DNA from: Candidatus Polarisedimenticolaceae bacterium
GTDB lineage: Bacteria; Acidobacteriota; Polarisedimenticolia; Polarisedimenticolales; Polarisedimenticolaceae
Assembly: GCA_963790785.1 (NCBI GenBank)
Contig: CAWBPP010000007.1
Location: 61,537-125,536 of the forward strand
DNA length: 64,000 bases
Reading direction: 5' to 3'
Part shown: piece after piece, positions 7,606 through 62,297 of the stretch
Layout of the letters: each line of letters opens with the position of its first letter
Numbering within the stretch: the stretch's first letter is position 1
Notes under the pieces: model-generated
Databases searched by the model: none
Told to the model about the DNA's origin: nothing
Seen by the model: the letters and a program-made list of their open reading frames with translations, nothing else
Program-made: the position numbers and the translations under genes

Positions 7606-8406
7606 ATGGGGCCTGTTTGTAGATCGGTAGCGGTGCTCGTTCTTGCGGCATCCCTGGCCGGTTGCGGAGAAACCACTCCCCAGAAGGTGGAGCTTCCGCC
7701 TCCTGAAACCTTCACCTGGACCACCGGCCAGCCGATCTCGTTTTCACCGCCGCCGGAAGCGTGGAATCAATCCCGCTATCAGAACGGTGGCACGGAGGGC
7801 GTCAGCTTCGTCCTGGCCGGATCCAAGGGGGAGCAAATCTTCGTCGCCGAGCAGTTCTTCCTGGGCAGGCGGGATGGTTGCGGGAAGCTCCGGGAGATCC
7901 TGGAGAACCTCGAGGAGTTCGACCGCTCCAGCTTCCGTCGCGCCATCGGCAAGGCACGGCTGTACGCCCCGGAACCGTACAACGCCCACGAGGAACACAC
8001 CGTCGACGTTGTCAACGAGCTGTTGGATCATGCCGCCGAGGCGTTCTCGTGGGGGAACCTGGCTATTGCGCATGACCACATGCAGGAGGCGCTGGAGCAG
8101 GCCGGTACGATCCGGTATACCGTTGAGGAGACGGTGGATCAGGTCCTGTTCACCAGGGAGAGGAACACGGTCTACCCGTCGCTCCAGGTCGACGAGCCGG
8201 TGGCCGGCGAAGTCTCCGGCGAAACGGCGCGGATCGTGAAGTTCACGTTCGAGGGGCACGGAACCGCGATGATCGGAAGGCGTGTTTACGTGGTCAAGAA
8301 CAACCGCATGTTCGAGTTCGGCTTCCAGGGTATTCCGGAACACCTTGCACTGTTCGAGAGCATCCTCCAGTCGGTGACCTTCCCGCCGGGGAGTTGCGAG
8401 CATTGA
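7606..8406 (+). CDS. Lipoprotein of unknown function
   Basis: Signal peptide MGPVCRSVAVLVLAASLAGC with lipobox. No recognisable domain. Confidence 0.55.
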   Translation: MGPVCRSVAVLVLAASLAGCGETTPQKVELPPPETFTWTTGQPISFSPPPEAWNQSRYQNGGTEGVSFVLAGSKGEQIFVAEQFFLGRRDGCGKLREILENLEEFDRSSFRRAIGKARLYAPEPYNAHEEHTVDVVNELLDHAAEAFSWGNLAIAHDHMQEALEQAGTIRYTVEETVDQVLFTRERNTVYPSLQVDEPVAGEVSGETARIVKFTFEGHGTAMIGRRVYVVKNNRMFEFGFQGIPEHLALFESILQSVTFPPGSCEH

Positions 8407-9149
8407 AAACGACGTTGTGCGCTGCCGCCCTGACCGGCCTGCTGTGGACCGGCTGCGCCGGCGCGCCGGAACTCCCGACCTTGACCTCAACCGATATCGG
8501 CATCCACCCCGTCTCGTTCCAGACGCCCAAGGGCTGGGTCCACCTGGACCACGGCAGGGAGCACCGCTTCCACCGGGAACTGGCCCAGATCTCGGCGGCC
8601 GACCTGGGCCCGGTAACTGCCGCAGGGTACCTGCGGGAGCTGCGCCACGCCCACCGGCTGTTCCGCGACTACCGCTACGAAGATGCAGCCGCCCATCTTA
8701 AAAGTCTGGACCTGTTGCCGGCGTTCCCCGACGAGCACCTTCGGAAACGGTTTTTCCGATCATGGCGGAAGGCGATGAACGGCGGGCGCTCCGACGACAT
8801 TACCCATGCCGATGCGGTTGTCGCCTGGGAGTACATCCTGGAAGAGGTCGAACGGCTGCCTGAGCCTGACCTGGCCGTTCTGGTACAGAACCGGTTTCCG
8901 GCCATCGAGACGGCGGCGCACCGGGAGATTGCAGAGCGGACTGAGCTGGAGATCGATGGTCGAGCGGCGATCCGGCTGGAGAGCTGGGACCGTTTGAGCC
9001 ACGACCACCGCCAGGCGTTCCTGTTCGTGCTGAACCAAGGCAACCTGCTGATGTTCCGGATGGAGATCGGGGAGTATGCCGAGCTGAAGACGGCGTTCGA
9101 AACCCTGGCAGGCTCGCTGACGTTTCAGTCCGCCGACGCCACCTCGTAA
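8403..9149 (+). CDS. Lipoprotein of unknown function
   Basis: TTG start gives MKTTLCAAALTGLLWTGCAG (lipobox). Adjacent to and co-directional with the preceding lipoprotein gene. Confidence 0.5.
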   Translation: MKTTLCAAALTGLLWTGCAGAPELPTLTSTDIGIHPVSFQTPKGWVHLDHGREHRFHRELAQISAADLGPVTAAGYLRELRHAHRLFRDYRYEDAAAHLKSLDLLPAFPDEHLRKRFFRSWRKAMNGGRSDDITHADAVVAWEYILEEVERLPEPDLAVLVQNRFPAIETAAHREIAERTELEIDGRAAIRLESWDRLSHDHRQAFLFVLNQGNLLMFRMEIGEYAELKTAFETLAGSLTFQSADATS

Positions 9150-11523: not shown

Positions 11524-11539
11524 GGCCTCGTTCCACAAT

Positions 11540-12028
11540 ATGGATCGCACCGGCAGAGGAGTAGTCAAGAAGATGAAATCCGAATGGACCGAAGTCGCAG
11601 CGGAGTGGTGTGGTGAACAGGCTTTCACCGGCAGGAACGAATCCGGCGGAACCGTTGCGATGGGCACTGTGGAGGAGGCACAAGCCTGCATTGCGCCCAT
11701 GGAGATGCTGCTGCTCGGGCTGGCCGGCTGCACCGGAGTCGACGTAGTCCTCATCCTTCGGAAAATGCGCCAGCCTCTCGCAAGAGTGCGTGTCGAGGTG
11801 CGGGCGAAACGGGCGGACAGCCATCCCAGGGTTTACACGGAGATCGAAATTACCTACCTGCTCTCCGGAGAGGAACTGAGCAAGCAGGCGATCGAAAAGG
11901 CAATCAAACTGTCGGAAGAGAAATACTGCTCAGCCAGCGCCATGTTGGAGATGACGGCGAAGATCCGTTCATCGTATCGCCTGGTCTCTGAAAGTGACGA
12001 CACCAAGGGGACGGCACTTCACTCGTAG
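11540..12028 (+). CDS. OsmC/Ohr-family protein (copy 1)
   Basis: PMEMLLLGLAGCTGVDVVLIL...EEKYCSASAML, the OsmC fold with conserved Cys pair. About 90% nt identical to 28917..29393 by eye. Confidence 0.8.
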   Translation: MDRTGRGVVKKMKSEWTEVAAEWCGEQAFTGRNESGGTVAMGTVEEAQACIAPMEMLLLGLAGCTGVDVVLILRKMRQPLARVRVEVRAKRADSHPRVYTEIEITYLLSGEELSKQAIEKAIKLSEEKYCSASAMLEMTAKIRSSYRLVSESDDTKGTALHS

Positions 12029-12890
12029 GCCTCGACCCTGTAAAAGCCGGCCGGGCTGCCGAGGGGGTCGTACGCGGACATAAGCGTCCCGTCGCCCACG
12101 ACACTCTGGAGGAGGGTCCAAGACGACTCGCTGAGGTCCGTCTTGTAGAGCACATCGTAATTCAAACCTACCTGTGTTTCGAACGAAATCTGGACGTCCG
12201 TCTCCGTGCGATAGAGCTGCAGCTCGATCTGCGGGCCGATGCCGCCAAGGGTCGTGAAGCCGTTGTCGTAGATCCTGATCCAGTCCACCCGGTATTCCGC
12301 CGGAAACGGTGCGGTGATCAGGCTGCTGTCTCCGGTGATGCCGGTGTAGTTGCCACCGACGGCCAGGTTCAGGAGGAGGAAGTGCGGCTGGTGGAACTCC
12401 TCGCCGTCGAAGCTCGCCGGGTCCGAGATGTCCATGGTCCAGATCCAGATGCCATCGATGTAGGTGGAAATATAGGTCGGTGTCCATTCCATGCGGTAGA
12501 TGTGGAACGAGTCGTTCAGATCGGTGGCCGACGTGTAGCTCAGTCCGTAGCCGGCGTAGTTGTCCTGAAATTCCCAGTGCGCCGCCGATCCGACACGCCG
12601 GTTGACCACTCCATCTGCGATCGCCGCTGCGCTCCCCATCTCGACGATATCGATCTCACCGCAGTCGGGCCAGCCGACGGTGGAGACGTTGTTTCCCAGC
12701 CGCAGATCCCCTCGGCACAGCCGTCGCCGATGGCGAAGGTCCAAACCGAGTTTTGGAGGGTCGAAACGGAACTGAATTCCTCGCTCCATAACAGCGTCTG
12801 GGCGCTGGACGGTCCGGCCAGGAACAGCGCGACGGCTGCAAGAAGCAAGGTTCGCCCCGGGCCAGGCCGCAGATATTCACATATCTTCAT
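12019..12890 (-). pseudogene. Glycoside hydrolase family 16 (laminarinase-like) gene with ~0.2 kb internal deletion and frame break (copy 1)
   Basis: Signal peptide + AQTLLWSEEFSS... (ORF 12540..12890) and ...VSTVGWPDCGEIDIVEMGS...FYRVEAYE (ORF 12019..12789) are in different frames. Versus the intact paralog 29423..30508, ~70 aa are missing between two CCCAGC direct repeats. Confidence 0.7.
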
Positions 12891-13300
12891 AGTGCCCTTG
12901 AATGTACCGTGATCGCTTGAAAGCTGCCAGCGACCCCTGTTTGCGGTCGGTCTGCCTGATTATCGACGTGAGTTGTGATGAAGGCATGGGGTTCTATTTC
13001 GCCAAACCCACGACGTTCAGGGAGCCCATTTTCAAGGTCGGGCGGGCCGACTACTACGCGGTTGATCATACGCCCACGTATCTTTGGGAAAGCGCGTCGC
13101 GCGCCATCTCCGCCGCCCTGATCGTGCACATACCCTCGGTGGTGGCAGGCCGGGAAAGCTGGCAACAGAACGAGACGATTCGGAGGGCCGTAAACATCGA
13201 CGCCGGCGTCGTGGTGAAACCCGCCATCCTGTCGTTTCAACACCGGCAGCCGAACTATCCGCACGCCTCGTTGTGATCCTGCCGGTTCTGCGCGATTCAC

Positions 13301-13426
13301 CGGACTCTGAGTCCGATACGGGAGTCCGTGGTTGCAAGATTTCTGCGGAATGACTGTGTTTTTCGTGTCCGTAGAGTCCGCTGCAGTTTGGCTGTTTCAT
13401 CCTCGATGTCAATTTTTGGCCACTCC
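13301..13426 (+). repeat. U-repeat copy A (starts with palindrome CGGACTCtGAGTCCG)
   Basis: About 80% identical over ~115 nt to 26846..26964. Shares gagtccg-acgggag-ggttgcaag-tgtgtttttcgt-tccgtagag-atgtca(a/c)tttttgg with copies at 16157 and 24568. Confidence 0.6.
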
Positions 13427-13561
13427 GGAACTGAGGCGGGCCTTACTTCGGCTCGTTAGAAACGCCGGCTATAATTCCTATCCGTTTTCATGCCGGTGGT
13501 GGCGAGTGTGGTGTTGACATATTATCTCTGACCGGACAAAAATCTAAATTCGCAGCTCGAA

Positions 13562-14608
13562 ATGCTTGTCCGCTATGAGGCAGTGACTTTGAATCCGATG
13601 AAATTGCGCCAACTTAGTACCGTTTTAAACTGCCTTATATGGACCTTGCTCCCCTTGATTATTGGTCTGGTAGTTACCGGTTTCGCCATGGGACCGATCT
13701 TCAAGATCCTGCCGCACGACCTGATGCGCGTCAATACCATCCTGCGTGCCCTGGACAACGATAATCACGAACCACAGGGAGTGCTTTTCGGCAATAGCGT
13801 TGCCATGAACGGATTCGACACTCGGCGTCTCGGTGAATTACTTTCTGATGGAGGTGAGATACTAAACCTGAGTTCAACCGGGCAAACGCTTCCCGAGAGT
13901 CTTTTGTATTACCAGGAACTCCCTTCTTCCGTCACACGGATCATCCAGGTCGTCATGCCGATGACACTGGAGAAGCAACAAAAACTCAGAGAAGATACAT
14001 ATAACGCCTTCTATTTTTATGGATACCGCCCAGAAAGTGCGATGTCGGAGATGATACGGGGAAGTGCCGGTGAGGCTGCGTATGAACTGTTGAACCGCTC
14101 TAATATATGGCATCGCTTCCACGGTCGGTGGGTGCTCCGACAATGGATCGATACCGGGGTCAGGAGTTTCCTGCGAACTGACCTGAACCTCGGTCGAGCA
14201 AGGAATGATCTTTATTATCCCGCTCCTTACACCAGGAGAATCCCGCCCCAGAAAACTGCCAGGCTGCTTGAGCTTTGGAAGGAGCCCCGTGAGGATGAAC
14301 GACTCCGGGTGTCGCCTTCCGCACGCAATACACTCCGGATGATGGCGGATTATGCCGCCCGTACCGACCGGGAATTCTACCTGGTGGTGGCGCCGATGCA
14401 CCCGGAACTGCGGGAACACTTCGGCGAGAGATTCTTCCGGGATATCGGTGAATTGCGCAGGTACCTCGGGTTGGTTTCCAGCGACGGCATAATCGATGCA
14501 ACGGCGTTACTGCAGGAGAGCCAGTTCATCGATCACGCCCACCCCACGGCCGAGGGGGCCAGGCTCCTGGAGGCGATGGTCGCTTCCTCAATCGAGGATG
14601 GCGCCTGA
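13562..14608 (+). CDS. Membrane-anchored partner protein of MBOAT acyltransferase (SGNH/DltD-AlgJ-like, tentative)
   Basis: N-terminal TM helix, GVLFGNSVAMNGFD block resembling SGNH block I. Immediately upstream of, and 1-nt overlapping, the MBOAT gene. Lower GC than surroundings. Confidence 0.4.
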   Translation: MLVRYEAVTLNPMKLRQLSTVLNCLIWTLLPLIIGLVVTGFAMGPIFKILPHDLMRVNTILRALDNDNHEPQGVLFGNSVAMNGFDTRRLGELLSDGGEILNLSSTGQTLPESLLYYQELPSSVTRIIQVVMPMTLEKQQKLREDTYNAFYFYGYRPESAMSEMIRGSAGEAAYELLNRSNIWHRFHGRWVLRQWIDTGVRSFLRTDLNLGRARNDLYYPAPYTRRIPPQKTARLLELWKEPREDERLRVSPSARNTLRMMADYAARTDREFYLVVAPMHPELREHFGERFFRDIGELRRYLGLVSSDGIIDATALLQESQFIDHAHPTAEGARLLEAMVASSIEDGA

Positions 14609-16048
14609 TGCTGTTCTATTCTCCGGAGTTCCTGGTATTCTCCCTGGCGCTTCTCGCCTTGCTGGGGCTTATCCACCGCCAGGCGCCAAGAAAAGTTCTT
14701 CTGCTGGTAAGTAGCTACATCTTTTACATGTGGTGGAATCCCGCCTTCATCCTGTTGATCATATTTTCGACTGTAGTCGATTACCTGGTCGGACGCAGGA
14801 TGGCGGTCACCGATCACACGGGGAAAAGAAGGCTGTTGCTGGTGACCAGCCTGGTCGCCAATCTGGGCCTGCTCGGTACCTTCAAGTACGCGGGGTTCTT
14901 TCAGGAAAATCTCCTGGCCGCTCTTAGGCTTCTCGGCACCGAACCTGGCTGGACTTCGTTGCATATCGTTCTTCCAGTAGGAATCTCCTTCTACACTTTC
15001 CAGACCATGAGTTACACCATCGATCTCTACCGGCGGGAGATCGGTGTCTGTCGTTCGCCTCTCGACTTCGCACTGTTTGTGGCGTTCTTTCCACAACTGG
15101 TGGCCGGTCCGATCGTCCGCGCCCGTGATTTTCTTCCTCAACTACTCGAACCAATCAAATTGTATGTGGATCGCAAGACACTCCTCCTGATTCTCAGGGG
15201 ATTGGCCAAGAAGGTCCTTATCGCCGACAACATCGCAGGATTCGCCGATGTCGTGTTCGAGAACCCGGGCAGTTATCCGAGCACGGTTATCTGGTTTGGC
15301 ACCATCTGCTTCACAATACAGGTCTACTGCGACTTCTCGGGGTACTCCGACATAGCCATCGGTGTGGCGCGGATCCTCGGTTTTCGCCTGCCCCTTAACT
15401 TCAACCGGCCCTACTTCGCAAGCAACCCGAACGAATTCTGGAAGAGATGGCACATAAGTCTTTCTACATGGCTGCGGGATTACCTGTACATTCCCCTGGG
15501 CGGGAACAGGGGCGGTACCGTCAAGTTGTACCGCAATCTGATGCTGACAATGCTTCTGGGCGGGTTATGGCACGGTGCCAATTGGAACTACATCCTGTGG
15601 GGTTTTCACCACGGCCTACTGCTCGTAGGGCACCGACTGTGGCGTGGTTTCAGAGTGAAATATTTCGGTGAGAGTAAAGGTTCTCCCGGTCACTTTACGA
15701 CAGTAATCTCCATTCTGTTCACGCAGTATTGCATAATGCTTACCATGATCACCTTCCGAGTCTCCGACCTGAGTCAGACGCTGCCGACGCTTAAGAAGTT
15801 CATCTTCTTCGACTTCGATTTCGGATTGACGAGCATAGGGATCGGGTCGATGTCGCTGTTCAGCACGCATCGTCCTGGTGGCGTTATTCCTGGTCCTGCA
15901 TGTGAACGCCAAGTTCAAAGGTGATTTCGAAACAAGAATGTCCAGGTTGCCGAACCTGGTCTACGCGGTGCCGTTGGTCATAATCGGGATAGCCTTTTTT
16001 ATCCTGTGGCCGATGCAGGAGGCGCCGTTCATATACTTCCAGTTCTGA
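14608..16048 (+). CDS. MBOAT-family O-acyltransferase (AlgI/DltB-like); frame break near 15871-15876
   Basis: MBOAT motifs (FWKRWHISLSTWLRDYLYIPLGG, conserved His in LWHGANWN). The called ORF ends at 15924, but removing one C from tcgtCCtgg restores ...STHRLVALFLVLHVNAKF...PFIYFQF* ending at 16048, a typical AlgI C-terminus. Confidence 0.75.
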
Positions 16049-16065: not shown

Positions 16066-16195
16066 AATGGGCCCGGAAGGACTCCCTCCTCCGCTAACGC
16101 TTCGGAGGGCAGGCGACGCCGAAGGCGCGCGGAGCAACCTGGGACCGACGGATTATGAGTCCGCTTCAGCAGTGCGTGGTTGCAAGGTTTTTAAG
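16066..16195 (-). repeat. Degenerate tRNA-Met 3' fragment carrying a ~51-nt insertion, plus partial U-repeat copy B
   Basis: aacctgggaccgacggattatgagtccg (16136-16163) is identical to the tRNA's internal 3' portion. 16069-16105 resembles 24655-24704. gagtccg...ggttgcaaggttttt follows at 16157. Confidence 0.55.
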
Positions 16196-24567: not shown

Positions 24568-24704
24568 GTCACTTTTTGGACACTTTTTGAATTCGGACAG
24601 ACTTCCTACAGCGTAGCAGTGATCTGTAAGGATAGTCGCTGCAACGACTTCGAATGGTGGGCCCACCAGGACTCCCTCCTCCGCTGACGCTTCGGAGGGC
24701 AGGC
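24568..24704 (-). repeat. Distal U-repeat fragment + 20-nt copy of tRNA-Met 3' end + GC hairpin
   Basis: gtcactttttggacactttt (24568-24587) is identical to 26945-26964. TGGTGGGCCCACCAGGACTC (24655-24674) equals tRNA 31326-31345. ccctcctccgctgacgcttcggaggg hairpin is shared with 16084-16109. Confidence 0.6.
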
Positions 24705-26803: not shown

Positions 26804-26852
26804 TGGTGGGCCCACCAGGACTCGAACCTGGGACCGACGGATTATGAGTCCG
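26804..26852 (-). repeat. Exact 49-nt copy of the tRNA-Met 3' end (att-like site)
   Basis: TGGTGGGCCCACCAGGACTCGAACCTGGGACCGACGGATTATGAGTCCG is identical to 31326-31374. Confidence 0.85.
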
Positions 26853-26964
26853 AAACGGGAGAACGGGGTTGCAAGGTTTTTGCTGAATGATTGTGTTTTT
26901 CGTATCCGTAGAGCCCGTTGAAGTGTGACTTCTCCATCCTCAATGTCACTTTTTGGACACTTTT
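26846..26964 (+). repeat. U-repeat copy C
   Basis: gagtccgaaacgggagaacggggttgcaagg...tgtgtttttcgtatccgtagag...atgtcactttttggacactttt. See copy A. Confidence 0.6.
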
Positions 26965-27045
26965 CAGGGATGACGGTCCGGTCCGCAGGAACGGCCCGCA
27001 GAGAAAGGTTCAACACCAACTTCAACCGACGCGGAGTCCACTGCA

Positions 27046-28110
27046 TTACTTTTGCCTGTTCTTCATGACTGATTTGATCATCTTCCCAAAACTCCTGTCC
27101 TGCTTTCTCTTTTCCAAATATGACATTTGGTTGAATTCCGATTCTTTTTTCATCTTCAGGTAATTTTGATAGCGTTGTTCGGACAGATCCCCTGTATTTA
27201 TAGCCGCCAGTATTTCACAGCCTTTTTCATTGGTGTGAGAACAGTCACTGAACCTGCATCTCTGGGCATAGTCCAGTATTTCCGAGAAAGTTTCATCCAG
27301 GCCGTCATCTGCCGACATGGTTCCAAGCTCTCTCATTCCCGGAGTATCTATTATCATTGCCCCGCTTTCCAACCGAACCAGGTGACGGCTTGCTGTAGTA
27401 TGTCGGCCTTTGCTTTGAATTTTACTTACAGGCTGCGTTTCAAACTTTTCCTCGCCCAATATGCAATTGAGCAAGGTAGTCTTGCCAACACCAGATGATC
27501 CCAACAGGCAATATGTAGAGCCACTCTGCAATGACCCGATAATCGAATCGATATTCTCTCGGTTCAGATTGCTGAACTCCATCACGGCGGTATGAGGAGC
27601 GATATCCAGCACACTTTTTTTAATGTCCGCAACTTCTTCCTTGGAAATCAGGTCGCTCTTACTCAGCAGGACCATCGGTTCGATGCCACTTTCATGGACC
27701 ATAACCAGATAGCGCTCCAATCTTCGCAGGTTGAAATTGTCATTCAAAGATTGAAGAATGAAGGCAACGTCAATGTTTGCGGCTATCAACTGGAAATCAA
27801 CCAGCTTGCCGGCTGTTTTTCTTTTTAGAAGCGTTTTTCTGGGGAAGACACCATAGATAATTGCGTGGGTGTCATCGTCATAATAATCTGCATATACCCA
27901 GTCACCGGCAGTGGGAAGTTCACTGGCAGACGCGATACAATAAAGAAGGTTTCCAGACAATTCGGCAAATATCTCCTTCGTTCCTTGCGTCACGGTGTAG
28001 CTGTCTTTATGCACAGAAACTACCCGTGCAACTCCATGAGCGGCAATCTGTTCATCGTCCGCTCGACTCTTGAACCAGTCGCTGTACCCTATGCTTTCCA
28101 AATTGCTCAT
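27046..28110 (-). CDS. rsgA: Ribosome small-subunit-dependent GTPase RsgA/YjeQ, in a markedly AT-rich segment
   Basis: OB-fold N-terminus, permuted GTPase (SKSDL, GSSGVGKTTLLN, DTPG), C-terminal Zn finger CRFSDCSHTNEKGC. Local GC is far below the window norm (23 G+C in 60 nt at 27061-27120). Confidence 0.85.
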   Translation of the reverse strand: MSNLESIGYSDWFKSRADDEQIAAHGVARVVSVHKDSYTVTQGTKEIFAELSGNLLYCIASASELPTAGDWVYADYYDDDTHAIIYGVFPRKTLLKRKTAGKLVDFQLIAANIDVAFILQSLNDNFNLRRLERYLVMVHESGIEPMVLLSKSDLISKEEVADIKKSVLDIAPHTAVMEFSNLNRENIDSIIGSLQSGSTYCLLGSSGVGKTTLLNCILGEEKFETQPVSKIQSKGRHTTASRHLVRLESGAMIIDTPGMRELGTMSADDGLDETFSEILDYAQRCRFSDCSHTNEKGCEILAAINTGDLSEQRYQNYLKMKKESEFNQMSYLEKRKQDRSFGKMIKSVMKNRQK

Positions 28111-28156
28111 GATGCACTCTAGGTCTCTTGCACCTGACGGGGTTGGACACGCCAGC

Positions 28157-28729
28157 TTAACTGCCGGTGGGCTTTATTCGTCCGGCAATTACCAGACCTA
28201 CTAAAGTCCAGGTGATGACATTGTTGACTGCCAGAAACACCAGGTAATCTTTGGGTTGGGGCCCAAAGCTCATCTGCAAAACATCATCGTACAGAGACAC
28301 TATCAAACCGATGAACAGTACGAACAAGACCCGCCTGGAGTATCGTGCCATTATCGTTGCGGACGTTACGGACAGCATCCAGGCGGCGATCAATGGAACA
28401 ACAAGTATTACCAATATCGGGATCAGGAACGAGACCGAGGCTGGATCTCCGTGAGTGCCGCCTGAATACATGATCGAAAAAACCGGCTGACTCCTGTAAT
28501 CAGGCAACAACTTTTCCTCTTCCCGGGATAAATAGGGGCAGGCATAGGTGCCGGCTTCTTTGATGTTGTCTTTGAGTACTTTATGGATTTCCAGCTGGTT
28601 GGGCGCAATCCTGTGCACCATATTGCTCTTCAAGGGGATCATGGCGTTAGACAAAAACAGCCATACAAACATGACTGCACTCCCTAGCAATCCGGCGATA
28701 ATCACGTCTTTTCTCACGGGGCACCTCAC
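28157..28729 (-). CDS. Hypothetical polytopic membrane protein
   Basis: 190 aa, several hydrophobic helices, no recognisable motif. Low GC. Confidence 0.45.
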   Translation of the reverse strand: MRCPVRKDVIIAGLLGSAVMFVWLFLSNAMIPLKSNMVHRIAPNQLEIHKVLKDNIKEAGTYACPYLSREEEKLLPDYRSQPVFSIMYSGGTHGDPASVSFLIPILVILVVPLIAAWMLSVTSATIMARYSRRVLFVLFIGLIVSLYDDVLQMSFGPQPKDYLVFLAVNNVITWTLVGLVIAGRIKPTGS

Positions 28730-28911
28730 TATGGTTCAAGCCTGTCAAATCTGTCTTTGGTTATCTCCGCTTTCACCTTTCCCGTGTGAGCAATGCCTGC
28801 GGGCTCAAACAGCATCAGCTTGACATGCCCCCTAGGAACTACACGATGTTCTACACCACTCTGAACGATGTAAAACTCCCCTTTCGCGCGCACCTGATCA
28901 GTGTACTCCAT
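28729..28911 (-). CDS. Small cupin-like protein (possibly truncated)
   Basis: 60 aa. EFYIVQSGVEHRVVPRGHVKLMLFEPAG resembles cupin motif 2 (PxGxxH). Weak. Confidence 0.3.
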   Translation of the reverse strand: MEYTDQVRAKGEFYIVQSGVEHRVVPRGHVKLMLFEPAGIAHTGKVKAEITKDRFDRLEP

Positions 28912-28916
28912 GTATT

Positions 28917-29393
28917 TTGATCCATGAAGATACGTTCGATATTATGGGTTCTTCCAGCATAGGAGTGACCCGCAAGATAAAACCTGAATGGCCCGAAGTC
29001 GCCGCGGAATGGTCCGGTGATCAGACTTTCACCGGTAGCAGCGCAACCGGTGGAACCGTCGAGATGGCCCCGGCGCAGGAACGGCACGACTGCGTTGCAC
29101 CGATGGAGATGCTGCTGCTCGGCCTGGCCGGCTGCACCGGAATCGACGTCGTCCTCATTCTTCCAAAAATGCGCCAGCCTCTCGAAAGTCTGCGTGTCGA
29201 AGTGCGGGCGAAACGGGCGAAAAGCCATCCCAGGGTCTACACGGAGATCGAAATCACCTACATGCTTTCCGGAGAGGAACTGAGCGAGCAGGCGATCAAA
29301 AGGGCGATCGAACTTTCGGAAGAGAAATGCTGCTCGGTCAGCGCCATGCTGGGCAGCATGGCAAAGATCCGTTCGTCGTATCGATTGATCTAG
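28917..29393 (+). CDS. OsmC/Ohr-family protein (copy 2)
   Basis: PMEMLLLGLAGCTGIDVVLIL...EEKCCSVSAML. Paralog of 11540..12028. Confidence 0.8.
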   Translation: MIHEDTFDIMGSSSIGVTRKIKPEWPEVAAEWSGDQTFTGSSATGGTVEMAPAQERHDCVAPMEMLLLGLAGCTGIDVVLILPKMRQPLESLRVEVRAKRAKSHPRVYTEIEITYMLSGEELSEQAIKRAIELSEEKCCSVSAMLGSMAKIRSSYRLI

Positions 29394-29422
29394 GGAAGTG
29401 ACGCCGTCAACGGTTCCCCGAT

Positions 29423-30508
29423 TCACTCATAAGACTCGACCCTGTAGAAGCCGGCCGGGCTGGTGAGCGGGTCGAACACCGACATGACGGTCCCGTCACC
29501 CGCGACACTCTGGAGGAAGGACCAGGATGACTCGCCCAGGTTCGTCTTGTAGAGCACGTCGTAGTTCATGCCTGCCTGTGTTTCGAACGAAATCTCGACG
29601 TCCGTCTCCGTGCGTGAGAGGTGCAGCTCGATCTGTGGTCCGATACCACCAAGGATCGTGAAGCCGTTGTCGTAGATCCGGATCCAGTCGACCCGGTACT
29701 CCGCCGGGAACGGCGCGGTGATCAGGCTGCTGTCTCCGGTGATGCCGGTGTAATTCCCGCCGACCGCCAGGTTCAGGAGGATGAAGTGCGGCTGGTGGAA
29801 CTCCTCGCCGTCAAAGCTCCCAGGGTCCGAGATGTCCATGGTCCAGATCCAGATGTCGTCGATGTATGTGGCGATATAGTCCGGCGTCCATTCCATACGG
29901 TAGACGTGGAACGAGTCGTTGAGGTCGGTGGTCGACGTGTAGCTCAGTCCGTAGCCGGCGTAGTTGTTCTGGTATTCCCAGTGCGCGGCAGACCCGACGC
30001 GCCGGTTGACCACTCCGTCCGCGATCGCCGATGCGCTCCCCATCTCGACGATGTCGATCTCACCGCAGTCGGGCCAGCCGGCGGTGGAGACGTTGTTTCC
30101 CAGCGTCCAGAACGCCGGCCACAAACCGTCGGCCAGGTCGGACAGCTGAATCCGCGCCTCGATGGTGCCGTATTGCACCGTGAGCCGGTCGGCGGTCTTG
30201 ATCCGGCCGGAAGTGAAGCTATCGCCCTGCCGCAGGGCGGTGATGATGAGCTGCCCTCCTTCCACCCTGACATTGTCCGGGTCGCTGGTATATACCTGGA
30301 ACTCGTTGTTGCCCCAGCCGCAGATGCCCACAGCGCACCCATCGCCGAGGTCGTAGGTCCACACGGAGCTTTCCAAGGCCGAACTGGAGCTGAATTCCTC
30401 GCTCCATATCAAGGTTTGGGCGCTCGATGTGCCGGTCAGGAATAGAGCGACCGCTGCAAAGAACAAGGTTCGCTCCGCGCCAAACCGCATATATCCAAAA
30501 ATCTTCAT
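29423..30508 (-). CDS. Secreted glycoside hydrolase family 16 beta-glucanase (laminarinase-like), intact copy
   Basis: Start chosen at MKIFGYMRFGAERTLFFAAVALFLTGTSSA (signal peptide), GH16 catalytic motif EIDIVE. The track start at 30700 adds non-coding-looking text. Confidence 0.8.
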   Translation of the reverse strand: MKIFGYMRFGAERTLFFAAVALFLTGTSSAQTLIWSEEFSSSSALESSVWTYDLGDGCAVGICGWGNNEFQVYTSDPDNVRVEGGQLIITALRQGDSFTSGRIKTADRLTVQYGTIEARIQLSDLADGLWPAFWTLGNNVSTAGWPDCGEIDIVEMGSASAIADGVVNRRVGSAAHWEYQNNYAGYGLSYTSTTDLNDSFHVYRMEWTPDYIATYIDDIWIWTMDISDPGSFDGEEFHQPHFILLNLAVGGNYTGITGDSSLITAPFPAEYRVDWIRIYDNGFTILGGIGPQIELHLSRTETDVEISFETQAGMNYDVLYKTNLGESSWSFLQSVAGDGTVMSVFDPLTSPAGFYRVESYE

Positions 30509-30706
30509 ATTGCCCATAAATGTACCGTGATCGCTGGAAAGGTGCCAGAGACGGACCAGTTCACCGCTCCGGCGGGCATTAGACCGGCCACGTTCGTTTG
30601 ACCTCAGGTATTTAGCGGCGGAACGGGAATCCAGATTCAAACAATCCCTTTTAACCGCGCCCCGCCGGTGCTTCCCCAAGACCGGTCTTTGTGGTTTCAT
30701 CTATCC

Positions 30707-31324
30707 ATGCATCACGAGCGCTTCATCCCGGCTGCCTCCGGTCCGGCCTTGGTCCGACGCGGCGCCGTCGCGCTCTTACTCATCGGCGGGATCTGTTGCC
30801 TGGTCGCCGGCTGTTCACAGATCGGAACCGATAGAGCCCGGCAGCGCTTGCTTGCGGACCTTCTCCTCGAGCGAGCGGACAACCTCGACCGCTCTGCTCG
30901 GCTGACCATTGCCGGTTCGCTGGTACACGCTGAGGCCGAGTACTCAGTGGACGCCCTTCTCCTGATGGCGGTCGTCGAACAGGAGAGTCACTTCAGGCCG
31001 CGCGCGGGGAGCAGGAAGGGTGCGCTGGGGTTGATGCAGATCCGGCCCGCAACGGCGAGCGACGTCGCCAAGCGCCACGGGATTGCCTACCGCAGAGCGA
31101 AGGACCTCTACGATCCCGCAATAAACATTGATATCGGTGCGGCCTACCTGGCGGAACTCGAGGAGTCTTTTGGGTCGTGGGAGCTGGCACTGGTCGCTTA
31201 CCACCGCGGCCCCCGGAATTTGCGGAAAGCGAGCGCAGGAGGAAAACCGGTGCGTTCCCGCTATGCCACGCGAGTGATGAAGCGCTACCGGCGCTTTCGG
31301 GAACTTTGTAGTTCCGAATTCTGA
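30707..31324 (+). CDS. Lytic transglycosylase (SLT domain) lipoprotein
   Basis: LLLIGGICCLVAGC lipobox; SLT catalytic block ESHFRPRAGSRKGALGLMQI; AYHRGP. Confidence 0.75.
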   Translation: MHHERFIPAASGPALVRRGAVALLLIGGICCLVAGCSQIGTDRARQRLLADLLLERADNLDRSARLTIAGSLVHAEAEYSVDALLLMAVVEQESHFRPRAGSRKGALGLMQIRPATASDVAKRHGIAYRRAKDLYDPAINIDIGAAYLAELEESFGSWELALVAYHRGPRNLRKASAGGKPVRSRYATRVMKRYRRFRELCSSEF

Positions 31325-31325
31325 A

Positions 31326-31402
31326 TGGTGGGCCCACCAGGACTCGAACCTGGGACCGACGGATTATGAGTCCGTTGCTCTAACCAACTGAGCTATAGGC
31401 CC
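31326..31402 (-). tRNA. tRNA-Met (anticodon CAT; tRNA-Ile2/lysidine type not excluded)
   Basis: Reverse complement GGGCCTATAGCTCAGTTGGTTAGAGCAACGGACTCATAATCCGTCGGTCCCAGGTTCGAGTCCTGGTGGGCCCACCA folds as a cloverleaf (7-bp acceptor, T-arm CCAGG/TTCGAGT/CCTGG, anticodon loop CTCATAA, encoded CCA). Confidence 0.85.
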
Positions 31403-37676: not shown

Positions 37677-37721
37677 GGGAGGGTCTCCTTAGGTTACCCC
37701 TTTCCCTTGCATTGTACATGA

Positions 37722-37832
37722 TGGGACAGTCCCCTGCGCAGAAGGGGACAGTCCCCTGCGGGGACAGTCCCCAATGACGGGACCATCCCCTGCGCAGAAG
37801 GGGACAGTCCCCTGAGGGGACAGTCCCCCCAA
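37722..37832 (+). repeat. Tandem array of six GGG(G)ACAGTCCCC units with short spacers (two ~56-nt super-repeats)
   Basis: gggacagtcccc at 37723, 37745, 37761, (gggaccatcccc) 37779, 37801, 37817. Spacers tgcgcagaag / tgcg / aatgac / tgag. Lies between the protease 3' end and the SYLF gene start. Confidence 0.85.

Positions 37833-53333: not shown

Positions 53334-53337
<4 letters not shown>
52693..53337 (-). CDS. tal: Short transaldolase (Fsa/TalC subfamily)
   Basis: [31 protein letters not shown]...FISPFVGR; 214 aa. Confidence 0.85.
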
Positions 53338-58228
<4,891 letters not shown>

Positions 58229-58371
58229 TCACCGTCTCTGCCGCGCGTCACCCCATCGCCGGCCCCATCGGGCCTGGGCGCGGGATCCCGCCGGGAACGA
58301 AAGGGCGGTGAGTAGGGGGAACCGCCCGGTCTCTAATACCACGGGACATTAAGATGATATTCTAGCGCGAA

Positions 58372-59484
58372 TCAGACGATGACGGAAACGGTCCCGTCCT
58401 GCACCCGGACATGGCGGAACGGTACGCCCAGGCGGAGGGCGGAATCCTCCTTGGAAGTAGCCACGATCGCCTGGAACCCCCCTGAATACAGATACTTGGC
58501 AAGCACCGCGCCCCGCTCCTCGTCCAGATCGGCATCGAAGTCGTCCATGAGAAAAACCGGAGCTTCCTCCAGGACCTCCTGGAGACGAGCCAGCTTGGCC
58601 AGTTTCAGGGCGACCATCGCACCCCGGACCTGGCCGGCGGACCCGAATTTCCGCAGATCGATGCCGTCCATCTCCACCACCAGATCATCCCGATGGGGCC
58701 CCGAAGCTGTGAACCCGAGGCCGACATCCCGGTCCCGGTTTTTCGCAAGGGCGGCCAGCAGGCTCTCCTCGTACGCCGACGGGGCCGCCTCCCGGCAGGA
58801 GGCCGGCGAAGGCAGATAGCGCAGGGTCAGGTCGGCGCCGTCGGGATAGAGGCGCCGGCAAGGGTCTCCCAGCTTGCCGGCCAGGAGAACGGCGTACTCC
58901 CGGCGAAACCGGTGGACCCGGCCGGCCGTCTCGGCCAGCCGCTGGTCCCAGGCCTGGAGTTGGCGTGAGGCAGAACTGCTGCCGGCCATCCCGCGAAGCA
59001 GTGCGTTGCGCTGGGCCCGTACCTGACGGTACTCACCCAGCACCCGCAGGAAAGACGGGGTGAGGCTGACGATCCCGCGATCCAGGAACCGGCGCCGCTC
59101 GTCGGGACCGCCGCGCAATACCTGCATACGCTCGGCGGTCAGGTCCACCAGGCCGAGACGGCCGATGTAGTGCTCGAACTGCAGGTGAAGTCCGTCGGCA
59201 AGCAGAGCCCTGTCCGGGCCATCCTGAATCACCGCCAGGCTGGACTCGCCGCCGCGCCAGGCGAAGGTTCCGGCCACCCGCATGGGGCCGCCGGACCAGG
59301 AAACTAATTCATCCGGTTTCCTGGTTCTGAAGGAACGGCCGGTGGCCAGCAGATAGATCGATTCCAGGATGCTGGACTTACCCTGTCCGTTCCGGCCGGA
59401 CAGGACGGTGAGACCTGCATCCAGATCGCAAGAAACTGCGCGCAGGTTCCTCAGGCGATCGGATTCGACCTTCCTGAGCCACAC
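58372..59484 (-). CDS. recF: DNA replication and repair protein RecF
   Basis: Walker A GRNGQGKSSILE; position between dnaN and gyrB. Confidence 0.9.
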   Translation of the reverse strand: MWLRKVESDRLRNLRAVSCDLDAGLTVLSGRNGQGKSSILESIYLLATGRSFRTRKPDELVSWSGGPMRVAGTFAWRGGESSLAVIQDGPDRALLADGLHLQFEHYIGRLGLVDLTAERMQVLRGGPDERRRFLDRGIVSLTPSFLRVLGEYRQVRAQRNALLRGMAGSSSASRQLQAWDQRLAETAGRVHRFRREYAVLLAGKLGDPCRRLYPDGADLTLRYLPSPASCREAAPSAYEESLLAALAKNRDRDVGLGFTASGPHRDDLVVEMDGIDLRKFGSAGQVRGAMVALKLAKLARLQEVLEEAPVFLMDDFDADLDEERGAVLAKYLYSGGFQAIVATSKEDSALRLGVPFRHVRVQDGTVSVIV

Positions 59485-59496
59485 CCGATCGGGAAC

Positions 59497-60645
59497 CTAC
59501 AGGAGGTGCATCGGCATGATGACGTAGCGGTAGTCGGTGGTCCCCGCCGGTTCGGGGCGCAACTGCCCCGGCTTGTCGCCGGCGCTGCCGCTCGGTCCCT
59601 CGCCTTCCTTCACCGGGTCGAGTTCCAGCAGAACGTTGGCGGTGCCGACCACGTTCAGAAAATCCTGGAAGTACCGGGCATTAAACCCTATGTCCACCGC
59701 GTCTCCGTCGTAATCTACCGGCAGCGCTTCCTGGGCGTTGCCCATGTCCGACTCATAGCTCAGTTCCAGTTTGCCGGCGGCAAGGGAGAACCTCACCGCC
59801 TTCCCGTAACGGTCACTGGCCATGAGGGAGACCCGGCGCACCGCAGCAAGCAGGTCCGCGGTAGGCACCGCCACCGAGAGGGCGCACGACTCCGGCATGA
59901 CGTTCTCAAAGCTTGGGAACGGACCTTCCGGAATAGTGGAGACCATTTCATGGCCGGCCAGCCGGAAGAACACGTGGTTACCCTTCATCCCGAACTCTAC
60001 CTTTTCTTCGTCTGTAAAATCGGCAGACAGTTTCATGACCTCGGCCAACGCCTTGCGAGGGACTATGACCTGAATCTTCCCCCCGGGAACGTCCAGATCC
60101 ATCTGCTGCTGGCAATAAGCCAGACGATGGCCATCGGTGGCCACCAGGAGGATCCCCGATGATTCCACCCGCAGCAAGGCGCCGTTCAGGGAGTACCTGG
60201 GGTCTTCCATGGTGATTGCAAAAGAAACACGTTCAATCATTGAGCGCAGGAGTTTGCCGGGCAGACTGACCGGAACCTTCCCCAGTTCGGGGAAGTCCGG
60301 GAAATCGTCCGGCGCATGGCCGGCCAGTTTGAAACGGGATCGTTCGCAGGAAATAGCCATCTGGTTATTGTCCTGCAATTTGAACTGGACCTCGGCGTCG
60401 GCCAGGGACCTGGCGATGTCCAGCAACTTGGCGGCAGGCAGGGTAACTGTGCCATTCTTCACCACCGTGGCCGTTACCGCCCCCCGTATGCTGACTTCCA
60501 GGTCACTGGCCCGGATGTGCAGTCCATCTTCTTTCGCTTCCAGAAAGAGATTGGCAAGGATCGGCAGCGTCGCTCGTTTTTCAACGACACCTGCGATGGT
60601 CTGCAATTCGTGAACGAGATCGTTCTTTCGGATCACGAACTCCAT
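59497..60645 (-). CDS. dnaN: DNA polymerase III beta sliding clamp
   Basis: MEFVIRKNDLVHELQTIAGVVEKRATLPILANLFLEA. Confidence 0.95.
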   Translation of the reverse strand: MEFVIRKNDLVHELQTIAGVVEKRATLPILANLFLEAKEDGLHIRASDLEVSIRGAVTATVVKNGTVTLPAAKLLDIARSLADAEVQFKLQDNNQMAISCERSRFKLAGHAPDDFPDFPELGKVPVSLPGKLLRSMIERVSFAITMEDPRYSLNGALLRVESSGILLVATDGHRLAYCQQQMDLDVPGGKIQVIVPRKALAEVMKLSADFTDEEKVEFGMKGNHVFFRLAGHEMVSTIPEGPFPSFENVMPESCALSVAVPTADLLAAVRRVSLMASDRYGKAVRFSLAAGKLELSYESDMGNAQEALPVDYDGDAVDIGFNARYFQDFLNVVGTANVLLELDPVKEGEGPSGSAGDKPGQLRPEPAGTTDYRYVIMPMHLL

Positions 60646-60893
60646 GATAGGTCCTTCTCTCCGATCTATCCCTTCAAACTATTCATCAAGAGATAGAGAC
60701 AGTAGTAACAGTAACGGCGTGGAAACTGCGGAAGGAAGCACAACCACCTTGTTTGCTATCGGTTGTCAAAAGCTCCCGATGCGGATGGATTGCGGATGCC
60801 TTATCGCGTTGGTCCACTCCTTCTCATTCTTCCTCAGGATCTGTCGAATGTCCACAATCGTTCCACCGCTCGGTTTGTTGAAAAGTAGCAAAT

Positions 60894-62297
60894 CTAATTC
60901 AGGTTCTGTTCAAAATTTTCCAGCAGGCGCTGAAACTCGCTGTCCTTCTTCTTACGAAGTTCTATCTTCTGAATGGCGTGGATCACCGTGGAGTGATGCT
61001 TGCCGCCGAACTGGCGTCCGATCTCCGGAAGAGAGCAGTTGGTCAGTTGCTTGCACAGGTACATCGCTATCTGCCTGGGGAAAGCGATGCGCTGGCTGTT
61101 GTTCCGGGATTTGATTTCGTTGTTCTTTAGGTTGTAATAATTACAGATTACCCGCTGGATCTGTTCCAGGGTCACTGCCGGGGAGTTGGGCGCCAGGAAC
61201 TCTTTGAGGGTTTCACGGGCCAGGTCCAGATCGATTTCCCGTCCGGTCATGGAGGCGTAAGCGATCACCCGGATCAGCGCTCCCTCCAGTTCCCGGATAT
61301 TGGATTTACAGTTGGATGCGATGAGCAGGGAGACGTCGTCAGGGACGTTGGCTTGTTCCGCCTCCGCCTTTTTCAGGATGATCGCGACCTTGGTTTCCAG
61401 GTCCGGCGGCTGGATGTCGGCGATGAGTCCCCACTCGAACCGGCTGCGCAGGCGTTCTTCCAGGGTCGGAATATCCCGGGGCGGGACGTCGCTGGTGAGT
61501 ACGATCTGCTTCCCGCCGTCGTACAGGGCGTTGAAAGTGTGGAAGAACTCCTCCTGGGTGCGCTCCTTGCCTGCGAGGAACTGGATGTCGTCAATAAGGA
61601 GAATATCGATGTTGCGGTACTTGGCTTTGAAGTCCAGGGCTTTCTCGAAGCGGATCGAGTTAATCAACTCGTTCATGAACTGTTCCGACGACAGGTAGAC
61701 CATCCGGGCCGCCGGGTTCTGCACCCGGACCCGGTTGCCGATGGCCTGCATCAGATGGGTCTTGCCCAGGCCGACGCCGCCGTAGATGTACAGGGGGTTG
61801 TAGCTGTGGGTCGGCTGGTCGGCCACCGCCATGGCGGCGGCATGGCTGAACTGGTTGCAGGACGAGACCACGAAGTTGTCGAATGTGTACCGGGTGTTCA
61901 ACCGTGGCTGGAGATGGCCCGGGCCGACTGCCGGCTCCGGATTCTTTCTCAGGAGCGCCGTTTTCTTCATCGCCGGACCCTCCGGCAGGAACTGTACCGA
62001 CAGCCCGGAACGTTTGAGATCTTTTAAAACATTTTGAATTATTCCGTTGTAATTGGTCCGCAACCACTCGGCGAACCAGCTGTTGGGAACCCGCACCGAT
62101 ATGCTGGAAGGATCCTCGCTGATGAAGCGGGTCGGCCGGAACCAGGTGTTGTAGGAATGGGTGTTGACCTTGGCGCGTACACGCTCCAGGATCTGGTTCC
62201 AGGTGTTGGTTTCCGTGGTCACTTCCAAGGCTTGAATCTCCCGGCCCGCCCTATGTGTGGCGCCGATGGAACGCCTATTTGCCAACAGGTTTTCCAC
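60894..62297 (-). CDS. dnaA: Chromosomal replication initiator DnaA (N-terminal start uncertain)
   Basis: AAA+ GGVGLGKTHLMQAIGN; C-terminal HTH. The true start may be an internal non-ATG codon near LEVTTETNTWNQIL. Confidence 0.95.
   Translation of the reverse strand: MENLLANRRSIGATHRAGREIQALEVTTETNTWNQILERVRAKVNTHSYNTWFRPTRFISEDPSSISVRVPNSWFAEWLRTNYNGIIQNVLKDLKRSGLSVQFLPEGPAMKKTALLRKNPEPAVGPGHLQPRLNTRYTFDNFVVSSCNQFSHAAAMAVADQPTHSYNPLYIYGGVGLGKTHLMQAIGNRVRVQNPAARMVYLSSEQFMNELINSIRFEKALDFKAKYRNIDILLIDDIQFLAGKERTQEEFFHTFNALYDGGKQIVLTSDVPPRDIPTLEERLRSRFEWGLIADIQPPDLETKVAIILKKAEAEQANVPDDVSLLIASNCKSNIRELEGALIRVIAYASMTGREIDLDLARETLKEFLAPNSPAVTLEQIQRVICNYYNLKNNEIKSRNNSQRIAFPRQIAMYLCKQLTNCSLPEIGRQFGGKHHSTVIHAIQKIELRKKKDSEFQRLLENFEQNLN

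Follow-up and report, generated by a model that had tools for sequence, protein, structure and literature searches.

RsgA, the GTPase of the RsgA/YjeQ/CpgA (EngC) family, is generally regarded as a ribosome-assembly factor that is inherited vertically. To our knowledge, integrons have been little studied in the phylum Acidobacteriota. Integron cassettes also insert outside integrons, as isolated cassettes (SALINs) and at attG sites (Loot et al., bioRxiv 10.1101/2022.09.11.507474). Here we describe a stretch of 64,000 nucleotides (nt) from an acidobacterial metagenome-assembled contig, called the window below, in which an AT-rich block at 26853–28915 holds a gene for an RsgA-family GTPase, a gene for a membrane protein and a fragment of a cupin gene. 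We consider it probable that this block is a foreign mosaic, with a decayed integron cassette carrying an accessory copy of RsgA on its left and an unrelated membrane protein/cupin fragment on its right. The window is chromosomal, since it also contains dnaA, dnaN, recF, gyrB, gyrA and dnaG, and its GyrB is ~70% identical to named Polarisedimenticolaceae sequences, which makes the host probably an uncultured acidobacterium of Polarisedimenticolaceae type.

An AT-rich block with an intact RsgA-family gene

The block has a G+C content of 47.7%, compared with 61.5% in the remainder of the 64-kb window, and is the lowest of all 2063-nt sliding windows (mean 61.1%, standard deviation (SD) 3.3%), lying about 4 SD below the mean. 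An earlier reading of this DNA, made from the sequence alone and referred to as the sequence-only reading, had reported a sharp drop in base composition; indeed, the 60-nt stretch at 27061–27120 measures 38.3% G+C. The same reading placed the start of the block right after a 49-nt copy of a tRNA gene, and this placement was confirmed by the identity of 26804–26852 to 31326–31374. The G+C content at third codon positions (GC3) is 0.51 in the GTPase gene and 0.62 in the membrane protein gene, while most other genes of the window have values of 0.72–0.88. The block is indeed foreign to the acidobacterial chromosome in which it lies, and it is a mosaic of more than one piece. Its horizontal acquisition, as had been proposed, is upheld by the phylogeny of the GTPase, by nucleotide homology that stops at gene borders and by an excess of AT>GC substitutions, each described below.

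The GTPase gene is located at 27046–28110 on the reverse strand. Its intact product of 354 amino acids scores 162.8 bits on TIGR00157 (cutoff 100) and 163.4 bits on PF03193 (RsgA_GTPase; cutoff 30, E 5.8e-48), and its motifs stand in the permuted order G4-G1-G2-G3 (SKSD at residue 150, GSSGVGKT at 204, GRHTT at 235 and DTPG at 255). With both profiles above their cutoffs and the motifs in this order, the complete RsgA/YjeQ-type circularly permuted GTPase of the sequence-only reading stands, but its Cys4 zinc finger does not: the site is a C-x4-C-x-H-x5-C motif formed by Cys285, Cys290, His292 and Cys298 (CCHC). Across 85 family members, the residues of G1–G4 and of the CCHC site vary little or not at all, and the window GTPase has all of them. 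Judged by profile and motif, the 354-amino-acid open reading frame (ORF) is a genuine RsgA-family protein. For the OB fold named in the sequence-only reading, which would be N-terminal, no confirmation was obtained: alignment to the solved RsgA/YjeQ structures covers residues ~68–322 (E ~1e-32) and leaves residues 1–67 unaligned. An AlphaFold model built from a shallow alignment was poor, with a predicted local distance difference test score (pLDDT) of 52 and values below 50 for residues 1–112. The protein scores 171.8 bits on NF008931, the E. coli-type equivalog, which is below the cutoff of 360 bits, and it is also below the cutoff of the cyanobacterial-type equivalog NF008932.

Relatives of the GTPase and traces of its history

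The best 120 database proteins are 77–100% identical, nearly all of them being 354–358 amino acids long, and the closest relatives come from Gammaproteobacteria (78–87% amino acid identity). The clade is highly conserved, with over 100 database proteins at 78–87% amino acid identity. The taxonomic spread was read from one-genome-per-species contigs, taking copies of at least 73% identity. These copies were found mostly in Gammaproteobacteria (Enterobacterales, Thiotrichaceae, Sedimenticolaceae, Psychromonas, Thiomicrorhabdus, SAR86 and Kangiellaceae), with others in Zetaproteobacteria, Desulfocapsaceae, Bacteroidota (Labilibaculum and Sphingobacterium), a Spirulina and Candidatus Polarisedimenticola svalbardensis. 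The clade resides mainly on chromosomes of marine and sediment Gammaproteobacteria and is present in at least five other groups. In a neighbour-joining tree with p-distance-type corrections, the sister of the window protein is a metagenomic copy (loci L004–L006; 87% amino acid and 86% nucleotide identity) deep within the gammaproteobacterial clade. The window protein is not sister to the copy from Polarisedimenticola (locus L019), and the RsgA of Blastocatellia, ~50% identical, is far from it. The comparison with the host lineage that the sequence-only reading had called for was thereby carried out: because the window protein nests in the gammaproteobacterial clade, apart from both the Polarisedimenticola and the Blastocatellia copies, the GTPase phylogeny contradicts the host lineage.

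The base composition of the gene tells of its history as well. Across 23 clade members the gene averages 5.9 G+C points under its flanks, being more than 2 points lower in 17 of them and higher in 1. Substitutions that could be polarised amount to 68 AT>GC against 16 GC>AT in the window lineage and to 8 against 17 in the sister lineage, a bias that bears the signature of DNA that arrived AT-rich and has been ameliorating since in a genome of high G+C content. The pairwise dN/dS between the window gene and its sister is 0.12 at a dS of 0.58. When codon changes are assigned to branches, 74 synonymous and 32 non-synonymous changes fall on the window branch, and 74 and 9 on the sister branch; constraint on the window GTPase would on these counts be relaxed about threefold yet clear.

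Two observations concern RsgA elsewhere in the phylum. In three Blastocatellia loci (L074, L077 and L086; gene at ~8001–9060) the gene encodes a long-type RsgA with an SKxD motif. Because it is syntenic between genera and its G+C content equals that of its flanks, it looks vertically inherited and probably represents the RsgA that has passed down by descent in the Acidobacteriota. Other members of the same distant clades, for example those at L059, L063, L084 and L085, lie 10–19 G+C points under their flanks. Further, in Candidatus Polarisedimenticola svalbardensis (L019, 445–3253; JACXWD010000011.1) there is a cassette-type GTPase with 75% amino acid identity to that of the window and a GC3 of 0.60. 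This gene has a core box, GTTAGGTGCG, at −27, adjoins an IS110-family transposase and has a genomic context unlike that of the window, which suggests that it was acquired independently of the window copy.

The sequence-only reading regarded an rsgA copy inside an island as unusual. This view was not supported by a search of plasmids, as full-length RsgA homologues were found on 193 PLSDB plasmid records, and accessory copies are not rare. None of the plasmid records matched the window DNA, and no match of the block to E. coli DNA was seen either. A phage origin of the GTPase was considered and rejected, phage records and viral contigs having only relatives of at most 41% identity.

Integron recombination sites around the relatives

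Nucleotide homology between the window and 87 other loci is confined to 27042–28144, that is, to the ORF, 4 nt after its stop codon and 24–34 nt before its start, and the neighbouring genes differ at every GTPase locus examined. What lies at these borders is most apparent on a Sedimenticolaceae chromosome (L001/L012), where the gene stands among ~10 imperfect palindromes of 116–122 nt within 13 kb, each of the form YTAAC...GTTAG. One of the two flanking palindromes ends 17 nt before the ATG and the other begins 3 nt after the stop codon, with folding z scores of −11.2 and −9.4, respectively. The palindromes are attC sites of a cassette array, at least 10 in number. A relaxed hairpin scan was found to over-call in GC-rich coding DNA, and its hits were excluded from the array counts. 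Similarly, in Psychromonas (L015) a 58-nt attC lies 3 nt past the stop codon (z = −5.1), and attC hairpins that end in the upstream box described next were detected at L004 (z = −5.8), L010 (−3.6) and L009 (−3.1).

Alignment of the flanks revealed two 10-mers that are conserved and complementary to each other: GTTAGGTGCA, which lies at −24 to −38, and TGCACCTAAC, which directly adjoins the stop codon. The former fits the integron core site R' (GTTRRRY) and the latter fits R'' (RYYYAAC). Allowing up to 2 mismatches, the upstream box is present in 13 of 24 distinct clade members (chance expectation 0.9%) and the downstream box in 10 of 23 (chance expectation 0.2%). In more distant clades (<72% identity, ~56 sequences) the upstream box occurs in 2 and the downstream box in none. 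Because the relatives carry attC hairpins at their borders together with inverted core boxes, we take the clade to be a lineage of integron gene cassettes, one that appears widespread and has previously gone unremarked; in the literature searched, no paper on RsgA-family cargo in integron cassettes was found. The sequence-only reading had overlooked the vehicle of the gene, which the attC sites and core boxes of the relatives disclose. Integron integrases would be able to excise and insert the gene as a single-gene unit, and such movement would account for its presence in several phyla, its differing neighbours and its low G+C content.

At two loci, L010 and L013, the gene is found among ordinary chromosomal genes (ClC channel, PGI, argA), and these loci resemble isolated cassettes (SALINs) and the attG insertions of Loot et al. 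The array in the Sedimenticolaceae chromosome (L001, 1–13065; OY829894.1) also holds two TIR-domain proteins, a BrnT/BrnA toxin-antitoxin pair and a flavodoxin-like protein, and IS3/ISL3 transposases have inserted into it. On a Vibrio plasmid with an rsgA gene, VCR-like repeats are present and do not flank that gene.

The window copy as a probable decayed cassette

The left part of the block, 27042–28138, would be an integron cassette with an intact RsgA/YjeQ GTPase that has since decayed. The cassette leader (28111–28138, reverse strand) ends in a probable remnant of the R' core site, GTCAGGTGCA, at 28129–28138; homology to the relatives ends at 28134–28144. This box has one mismatch to the clade consensus and stands at −28, as in L004; the mismatch falls in the GTT triplet itself, so that the core reads GTC, not GTT. 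The leader forms part of the 46-nt spacer (28111–28156, reverse strand) that separates the GTPase gene from the membrane protein gene, and the box is located 18 nt past the stop codon of the latter. As homology to relatives of the membrane protein gene ends at 28148, the two foreign pieces meet at the cassette core.

Decay is evident on the downstream side. Of the R'' box only TGCA is left after the window ORF (5 of 10 positions mismatched), and homology to the relatives ends 4 nt after the stop codon. The GC-rich (61%) 66-nt spacer at 26976–27041, between the end of cassette homology and a repeated non-coding sequence described below, has no attC hairpin (folding z = −0.78). Among the scanned ORFs of the 64-kb window there is no integrase. 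Since its attC is lost and no integrase is nearby, the copy is fixed in place, and we regard it as a fossil cassette that is now immobile. It would have been resident for long enough to gain G+C, under purifying selection that kept the GTPase and zinc motifs intact, and the GTPase gene probably shares a transcript with its two upstream neighbours. Its arrival may have begun with insertion at a non-canonical site of a donor genome, downstream of the membrane protein gene, after which ~2 kb of donor DNA would have been transferred; alternatively, the pieces may have come in separate events.

The membrane protein and the cupin fragment

The right part of the block (28148–28911) would be an unrelated fragment comprising the membrane protein gene and a truncated cupin gene, neither being a functional partner of the GTPase. 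The membrane protein gene lies at 28157–28717 on the reverse strand. The sequence-only reading had described a polytopic protein of 190 amino acids; it is polytopic, with four transmembrane helices, and its length is more likely 186 amino acids, since the family alignment favours the GTG start at 28717 over the GTG at 28729. An AlphaFold model is confident (pLDDT 90.8) and shows the four helices, the first and second of which are separated by a small extracytoplasmic helix/hairpin insert. As had been anticipated, the protein matched no family in Pfam or NCBIfam, and no meaningful structural neighbour was found in the PDB; it belongs to an uncharacterised family of ~98 database proteins, all annotated as 'hypothetical', with named sources that include Gemmatimonas, Zixibacteria and KSB1. 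Its closest relative (L088, 84% nucleotide identity) shares homology only over 28148–28727, and the neighbouring genes there are unrelated.

The 60-codon ORF at 28729–28911 (reverse strand) corresponds to the C-terminal ~40% of a Cupin_2 protein of ~120 amino acids. Its residues 10–59 align to residues 73–122 of such proteins, one of which (P0342, 123 amino acids) scores 49 bits on Cupin_2, while the ORF itself reaches 13.5 bits on PF07883 against a cutoff of 27.2 and covers profile positions 41–65 only. In agreement with the sequence-only reading, the ORF is therefore cupin-like; because of its C-terminal-only match and an in-frame stop codon just upstream, it was interpreted as a truncated remnant. 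The gene is cut off where the AT-rich block ends on its right. No cassette marks were seen around the membrane protein gene and the cupin fragment.

Function and alternative explanations

By homology, the window GTPase would be stimulated by the 30S subunit and take part in late maturation of the small subunit. Gammaproteobacteria carry an E. coli-type housekeeping rsgA, and since the window GTPase falls under the NF008931 cutoff, the cassette protein would be supernumerary in these bacteria. Most likely, the window GTPase is an extra copy with the usual RsgA action on late 30S intermediates.

Several points weigh against the interpretation of the block as a decayed RsgA cassette joined to an unrelated fragment. 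The window has no attC hairpin, no intI and no attI, and the cassette status of its copy derives from its descent from cassette-borne relatives and one 10-nt box. Among the relatives, a complete attC can be demonstrated in only a minority, and no integron integrase was present in any fetched locus or within 17 kb around L012. Detection of attC sites was by a home-made heuristic rather than IntegronFinder, with a sizeable false-positive rate in GC-rich DNA. The G4 motif of the window protein is SKxD instead of NKxD, the ribosome-related role is assigned by homology only, at ~30–35% identity to characterised RsgA proteins, and the non-synonymous rate of the window branch, which exceeds that of the sister branch ~3-fold, could mean relaxed constraint. 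Further, the interpretation does not explain how the cassette and the membrane protein/cupin fragment would have reached the tRNA-Met repeat.

The main alternatives differ in what they make of the gene's role. The acquired gene could be a xenologous replacement, that is, the only RsgA of the host, serving the housekeeping function after loss of the native copy. In favour of this, the gene is intact and shows purifying selection, and no other rsgA is found in the window. A substitution would also be plausible because the broad SKxD subfamily to which the gene belongs includes the native RsgA of other Acidobacteriota. However, the window represents an inspection of the genome over 64 kb only, the 193 plasmid records with RsgA homologues speak against replacement, and in Gammaproteobacteria the clade is far below the NF008931 cutoff (172 against 360 bits) and would be an extra copy next to the E. 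coli-type rsgA; we consider replacement unlikely. That the gene serves not ribosome assembly but another selectable trait, such as tolerance to drugs or toxins acting on the 30S subunit, defence against phages or an additional phosphatase activity as in CpgA, appears quite unlikely. Its appeal is that integron cassettes typically carry conditionally useful traits, phage defence among them (bioRxiv 10.1101/2024.07.02.601719), that neighbouring cassettes in L001 encode TIR proteins and BrnT/BrnA, that the gene shows extreme conservation for a mobile gene (dN ~0.1, dS saturated), and that B. subtilis CpgA has a second, metabolite-proofreading activity (PMC12445079). However, every RsgA hallmark is kept, and PADLOC gave only generic P-loop matches, with none significant beyond these; membership in a defence system was rejected on that account. 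An extension of the same idea, in our opinion speculative and unlikely to be right, is that integrons spread a near-invariant RsgA GTPase across phyla as a portable means of ribosome modification or protection, which might, for example, be rescue or proofreading of 30S subunits attacked by aminoglycoside-like compounds, toxins or phages. If true, a family of housekeeping assembly factors would have a mobile, conditionally beneficial branch, with the acidobacterial copy as one domesticated example.

Two further explanations concern the make-up of the block. The sequence-only reading suggested that the GTPase might have been repurposed with the membrane protein as its partner, and the two genes, which are alike in being AT-rich and are separated by 46 nt on one strand, could have been acquired together as a two-gene module working at the membrane. 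This now appears very unlikely, as neither the membrane protein nor the cupin fragment had a tblastn match in the 87 loci fetched around relatives of RsgA, and the two fetched loci of membrane protein homologues have no RsgA and instead adjoin genes for an adenylate cyclase and a Ser/Thr kinase. Moreover, neither gene shares nucleotide homology with its relatives past its own borders, and the two homologous stretches adjoin within the 46-nt spacer, where the cassette core box lies. The source being a metagenome-assembled contig of 181,993 bp with a sharp jump in composition, one may also think of an assembly or binning artefact in which a gammaproteobacterial fragment was misjoined into the contig of an acidobacterial metagenome-assembled genome (MAG). 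However, the same contig continues into host-like DNA on either side, and the nucleotide identity of the gene to its nearest known relative is no more than 86%. A copy ameliorated to a similar degree (GC3 0.60) occurs independently in a related MAG, that of Polarisedimenticola. The strong AT>GC bias on the window lineage is what would be expected after a long stay in a GC-rich genome and disfavours an assembly chimera, so that we regard an artefact as extremely improbable. The foreign mosaic with a decayed RsgA cassette remains the reading that we prefer.

The tRNA-Met-linked variable region

The intact tRNA-Met gene (CAT anticodon; 31326–31402, reverse strand) is the source of the repeated 3' fragments. 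It is the sole tRNA gene of the window, and a tRNA was all that the Rfam scan of the window returned. The repeat at 26804–26852 matches the 3' part of this gene, from the 3' end to the anticodon stem, in 49 of 49 nt, and is the left limit of a tRNA-proximal variable segment. Further tRNA-Met fragments with homologous arms are present at ~13.3 kb and ~16.1 kb, and 26853–31325 appears to be the innermost in a series of insertions associated with tRNA-Met. Its ORFs encode RsgA, the membrane protein, the cupin fragment, OsmC, GH16 and SLT, and include no tyrosine or serine integrase. Because of this and because its tRNA-proximal half is host-like, the label 'island' is only partly apt for 26853–31325. 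A scan for promoters and terminators gave hits at chance level only.

A non-coding arm of ~120 nt follows each tRNA-Met fragment. The arm next to the AT-rich genes (26853–26975, 123 nt, 45.5% G+C) lies outside the cassette and is 82% identical to 13316–13440 and 86% identical to 16164–16192; a 20-nt exact piece of it also occurs at 24568–24587. The arm had no match in metagenome contigs, and may be an island end or part of an att site. Another 3' piece of tRNA-Met, at 16067–16163, is interrupted in the T-loop part by an insert of 51 nt. The terminal bases of the tRNA and 30 nt of this insert make up a 47-nt direct repeat (16068–16114 and 24658–24704; 91% identical), which brackets an 8.6-kb cluster of genes for cyclopropane-fatty-acid synthases, a DUF1365 protein and an amine oxidase. 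The cluster looks like a second, nested repeat-bounded segment that has no integrase.

On its right, the AT-rich patch is bounded by a host-like block with OsmC and GH16 genes assigned by Pfam (28933–30552). This pair occurs twice, the second occurrence being at 11529–12934 with 80–85% nucleotide identity and a truncated GH16 gene, and may represent a diverged duplication or tRNA-flanking DNA imported from a related strain. After the copy at 11529–12934 come a 124-amino-acid ORF (12902–13276) whose only match is to the C-terminal part of alanine dehydrogenase/PNT, then a degenerate fragment of the tRNA and the arm. Right after the arm at 13316–13440, a milder low-GC patch (13562–15924; 53.7% G+C, GC3 0.62–0.67) encodes a 348-amino-acid protein that has no Pfam family and an MBOAT-family O-acyltransferase. 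Elsewhere in the window, an intergenic tandem 55/56-nt repeat (37718–37828; 93% identical) consists of palindromic units of GGGACAGTCCCC. An origin-proximal set of dnaA, recF, gyrB and gyrA, assigned by position or Pfam, is found at 53334–62297, with dnaG and an rpoD-like sigma-70 gene at 43–47 kb, and on the basis of this set the tRNA-Met variable region is ~30 kb from the likely replication origin.

Significance and comparison with known systems

One clade of RsgA behaves as mobile cargo, travelling as a single-gene cassette with ~80% protein identity across Gammaproteobacteria. Its gene is almost always AT-richer than the host and remains under strong purifying selection even after the recombination sites have decayed, and the window copy would show where the spread of a cassette can end, as a fossil that has lost its attC and lies outside any integron. 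The clade offers a testable entry point to the benefit that an extra RsgA brings to a cell and to the functions other than resistance that are traded by chromosomal integrons. It also carries a warning for annotation, as 'rsgA' calls made from TIGR00157 can be accessory xenologues.

In relation to the described members of the RsgA/YjeQ/CpgA (EngC) family (TIGR00157; 2yv5, 2rcn, 1t9h and 5uz4), the window GTPase is alike in having the permuted domain followed by a CCHC domain. It differs from characterised RsgA proteins in that it aligns to them with an E of only ~1e-32 and has SKxD, not NKxD, as its G4 motif, and from the solved structures in its unaligned 67 N-terminal residues and its basic C-terminal tail. 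In contrast to the syntenic housekeeping RsgA, the gene of the window clade is mobile and probably accessory. The paralogues on plasmids and chromids, such as those of Vibrio alginolyticus (NZ_CP135970.1), Nostoc PCC 7120 (NC_003267.1) and Leptospira (NZ_CP012032.1), align over the full length (residues 3–354), have the same PGAP annotation and are likewise accessory copies on mobile replicons, but at 35–40% identity they belong to another clade than the window GTPase.

The window region resembles tRNA-linked islands in that a direct repeat of a tRNA 3' part bounds genes of foreign composition, and in the arms that come after successive tRNA fragments. Unlike such islands, it has no integrase among the scanned 64-kb ORFs, its AT-rich patch makes up only 2 kb of the 4.5-kb segment, and the tRNA-proximal half (OsmC, GH16 and SLT) is host-like in composition and duplicated elsewhere. 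With integron cassettes the window gene shares the form of a single promoterless ORF with a short leader that would start at the G|TT core; however, in the cassettes of its relatives attC directly follows the stop codon, whereas the window copy lacks attC and shows GTC in place of GTT in its core. Compared with SALINs, it is one step more decayed, the integrase again being absent nearby. The RsgA family and integron cassettes are both already known kinds, and it is the lineage of RsgA cassettes that is added to them here.

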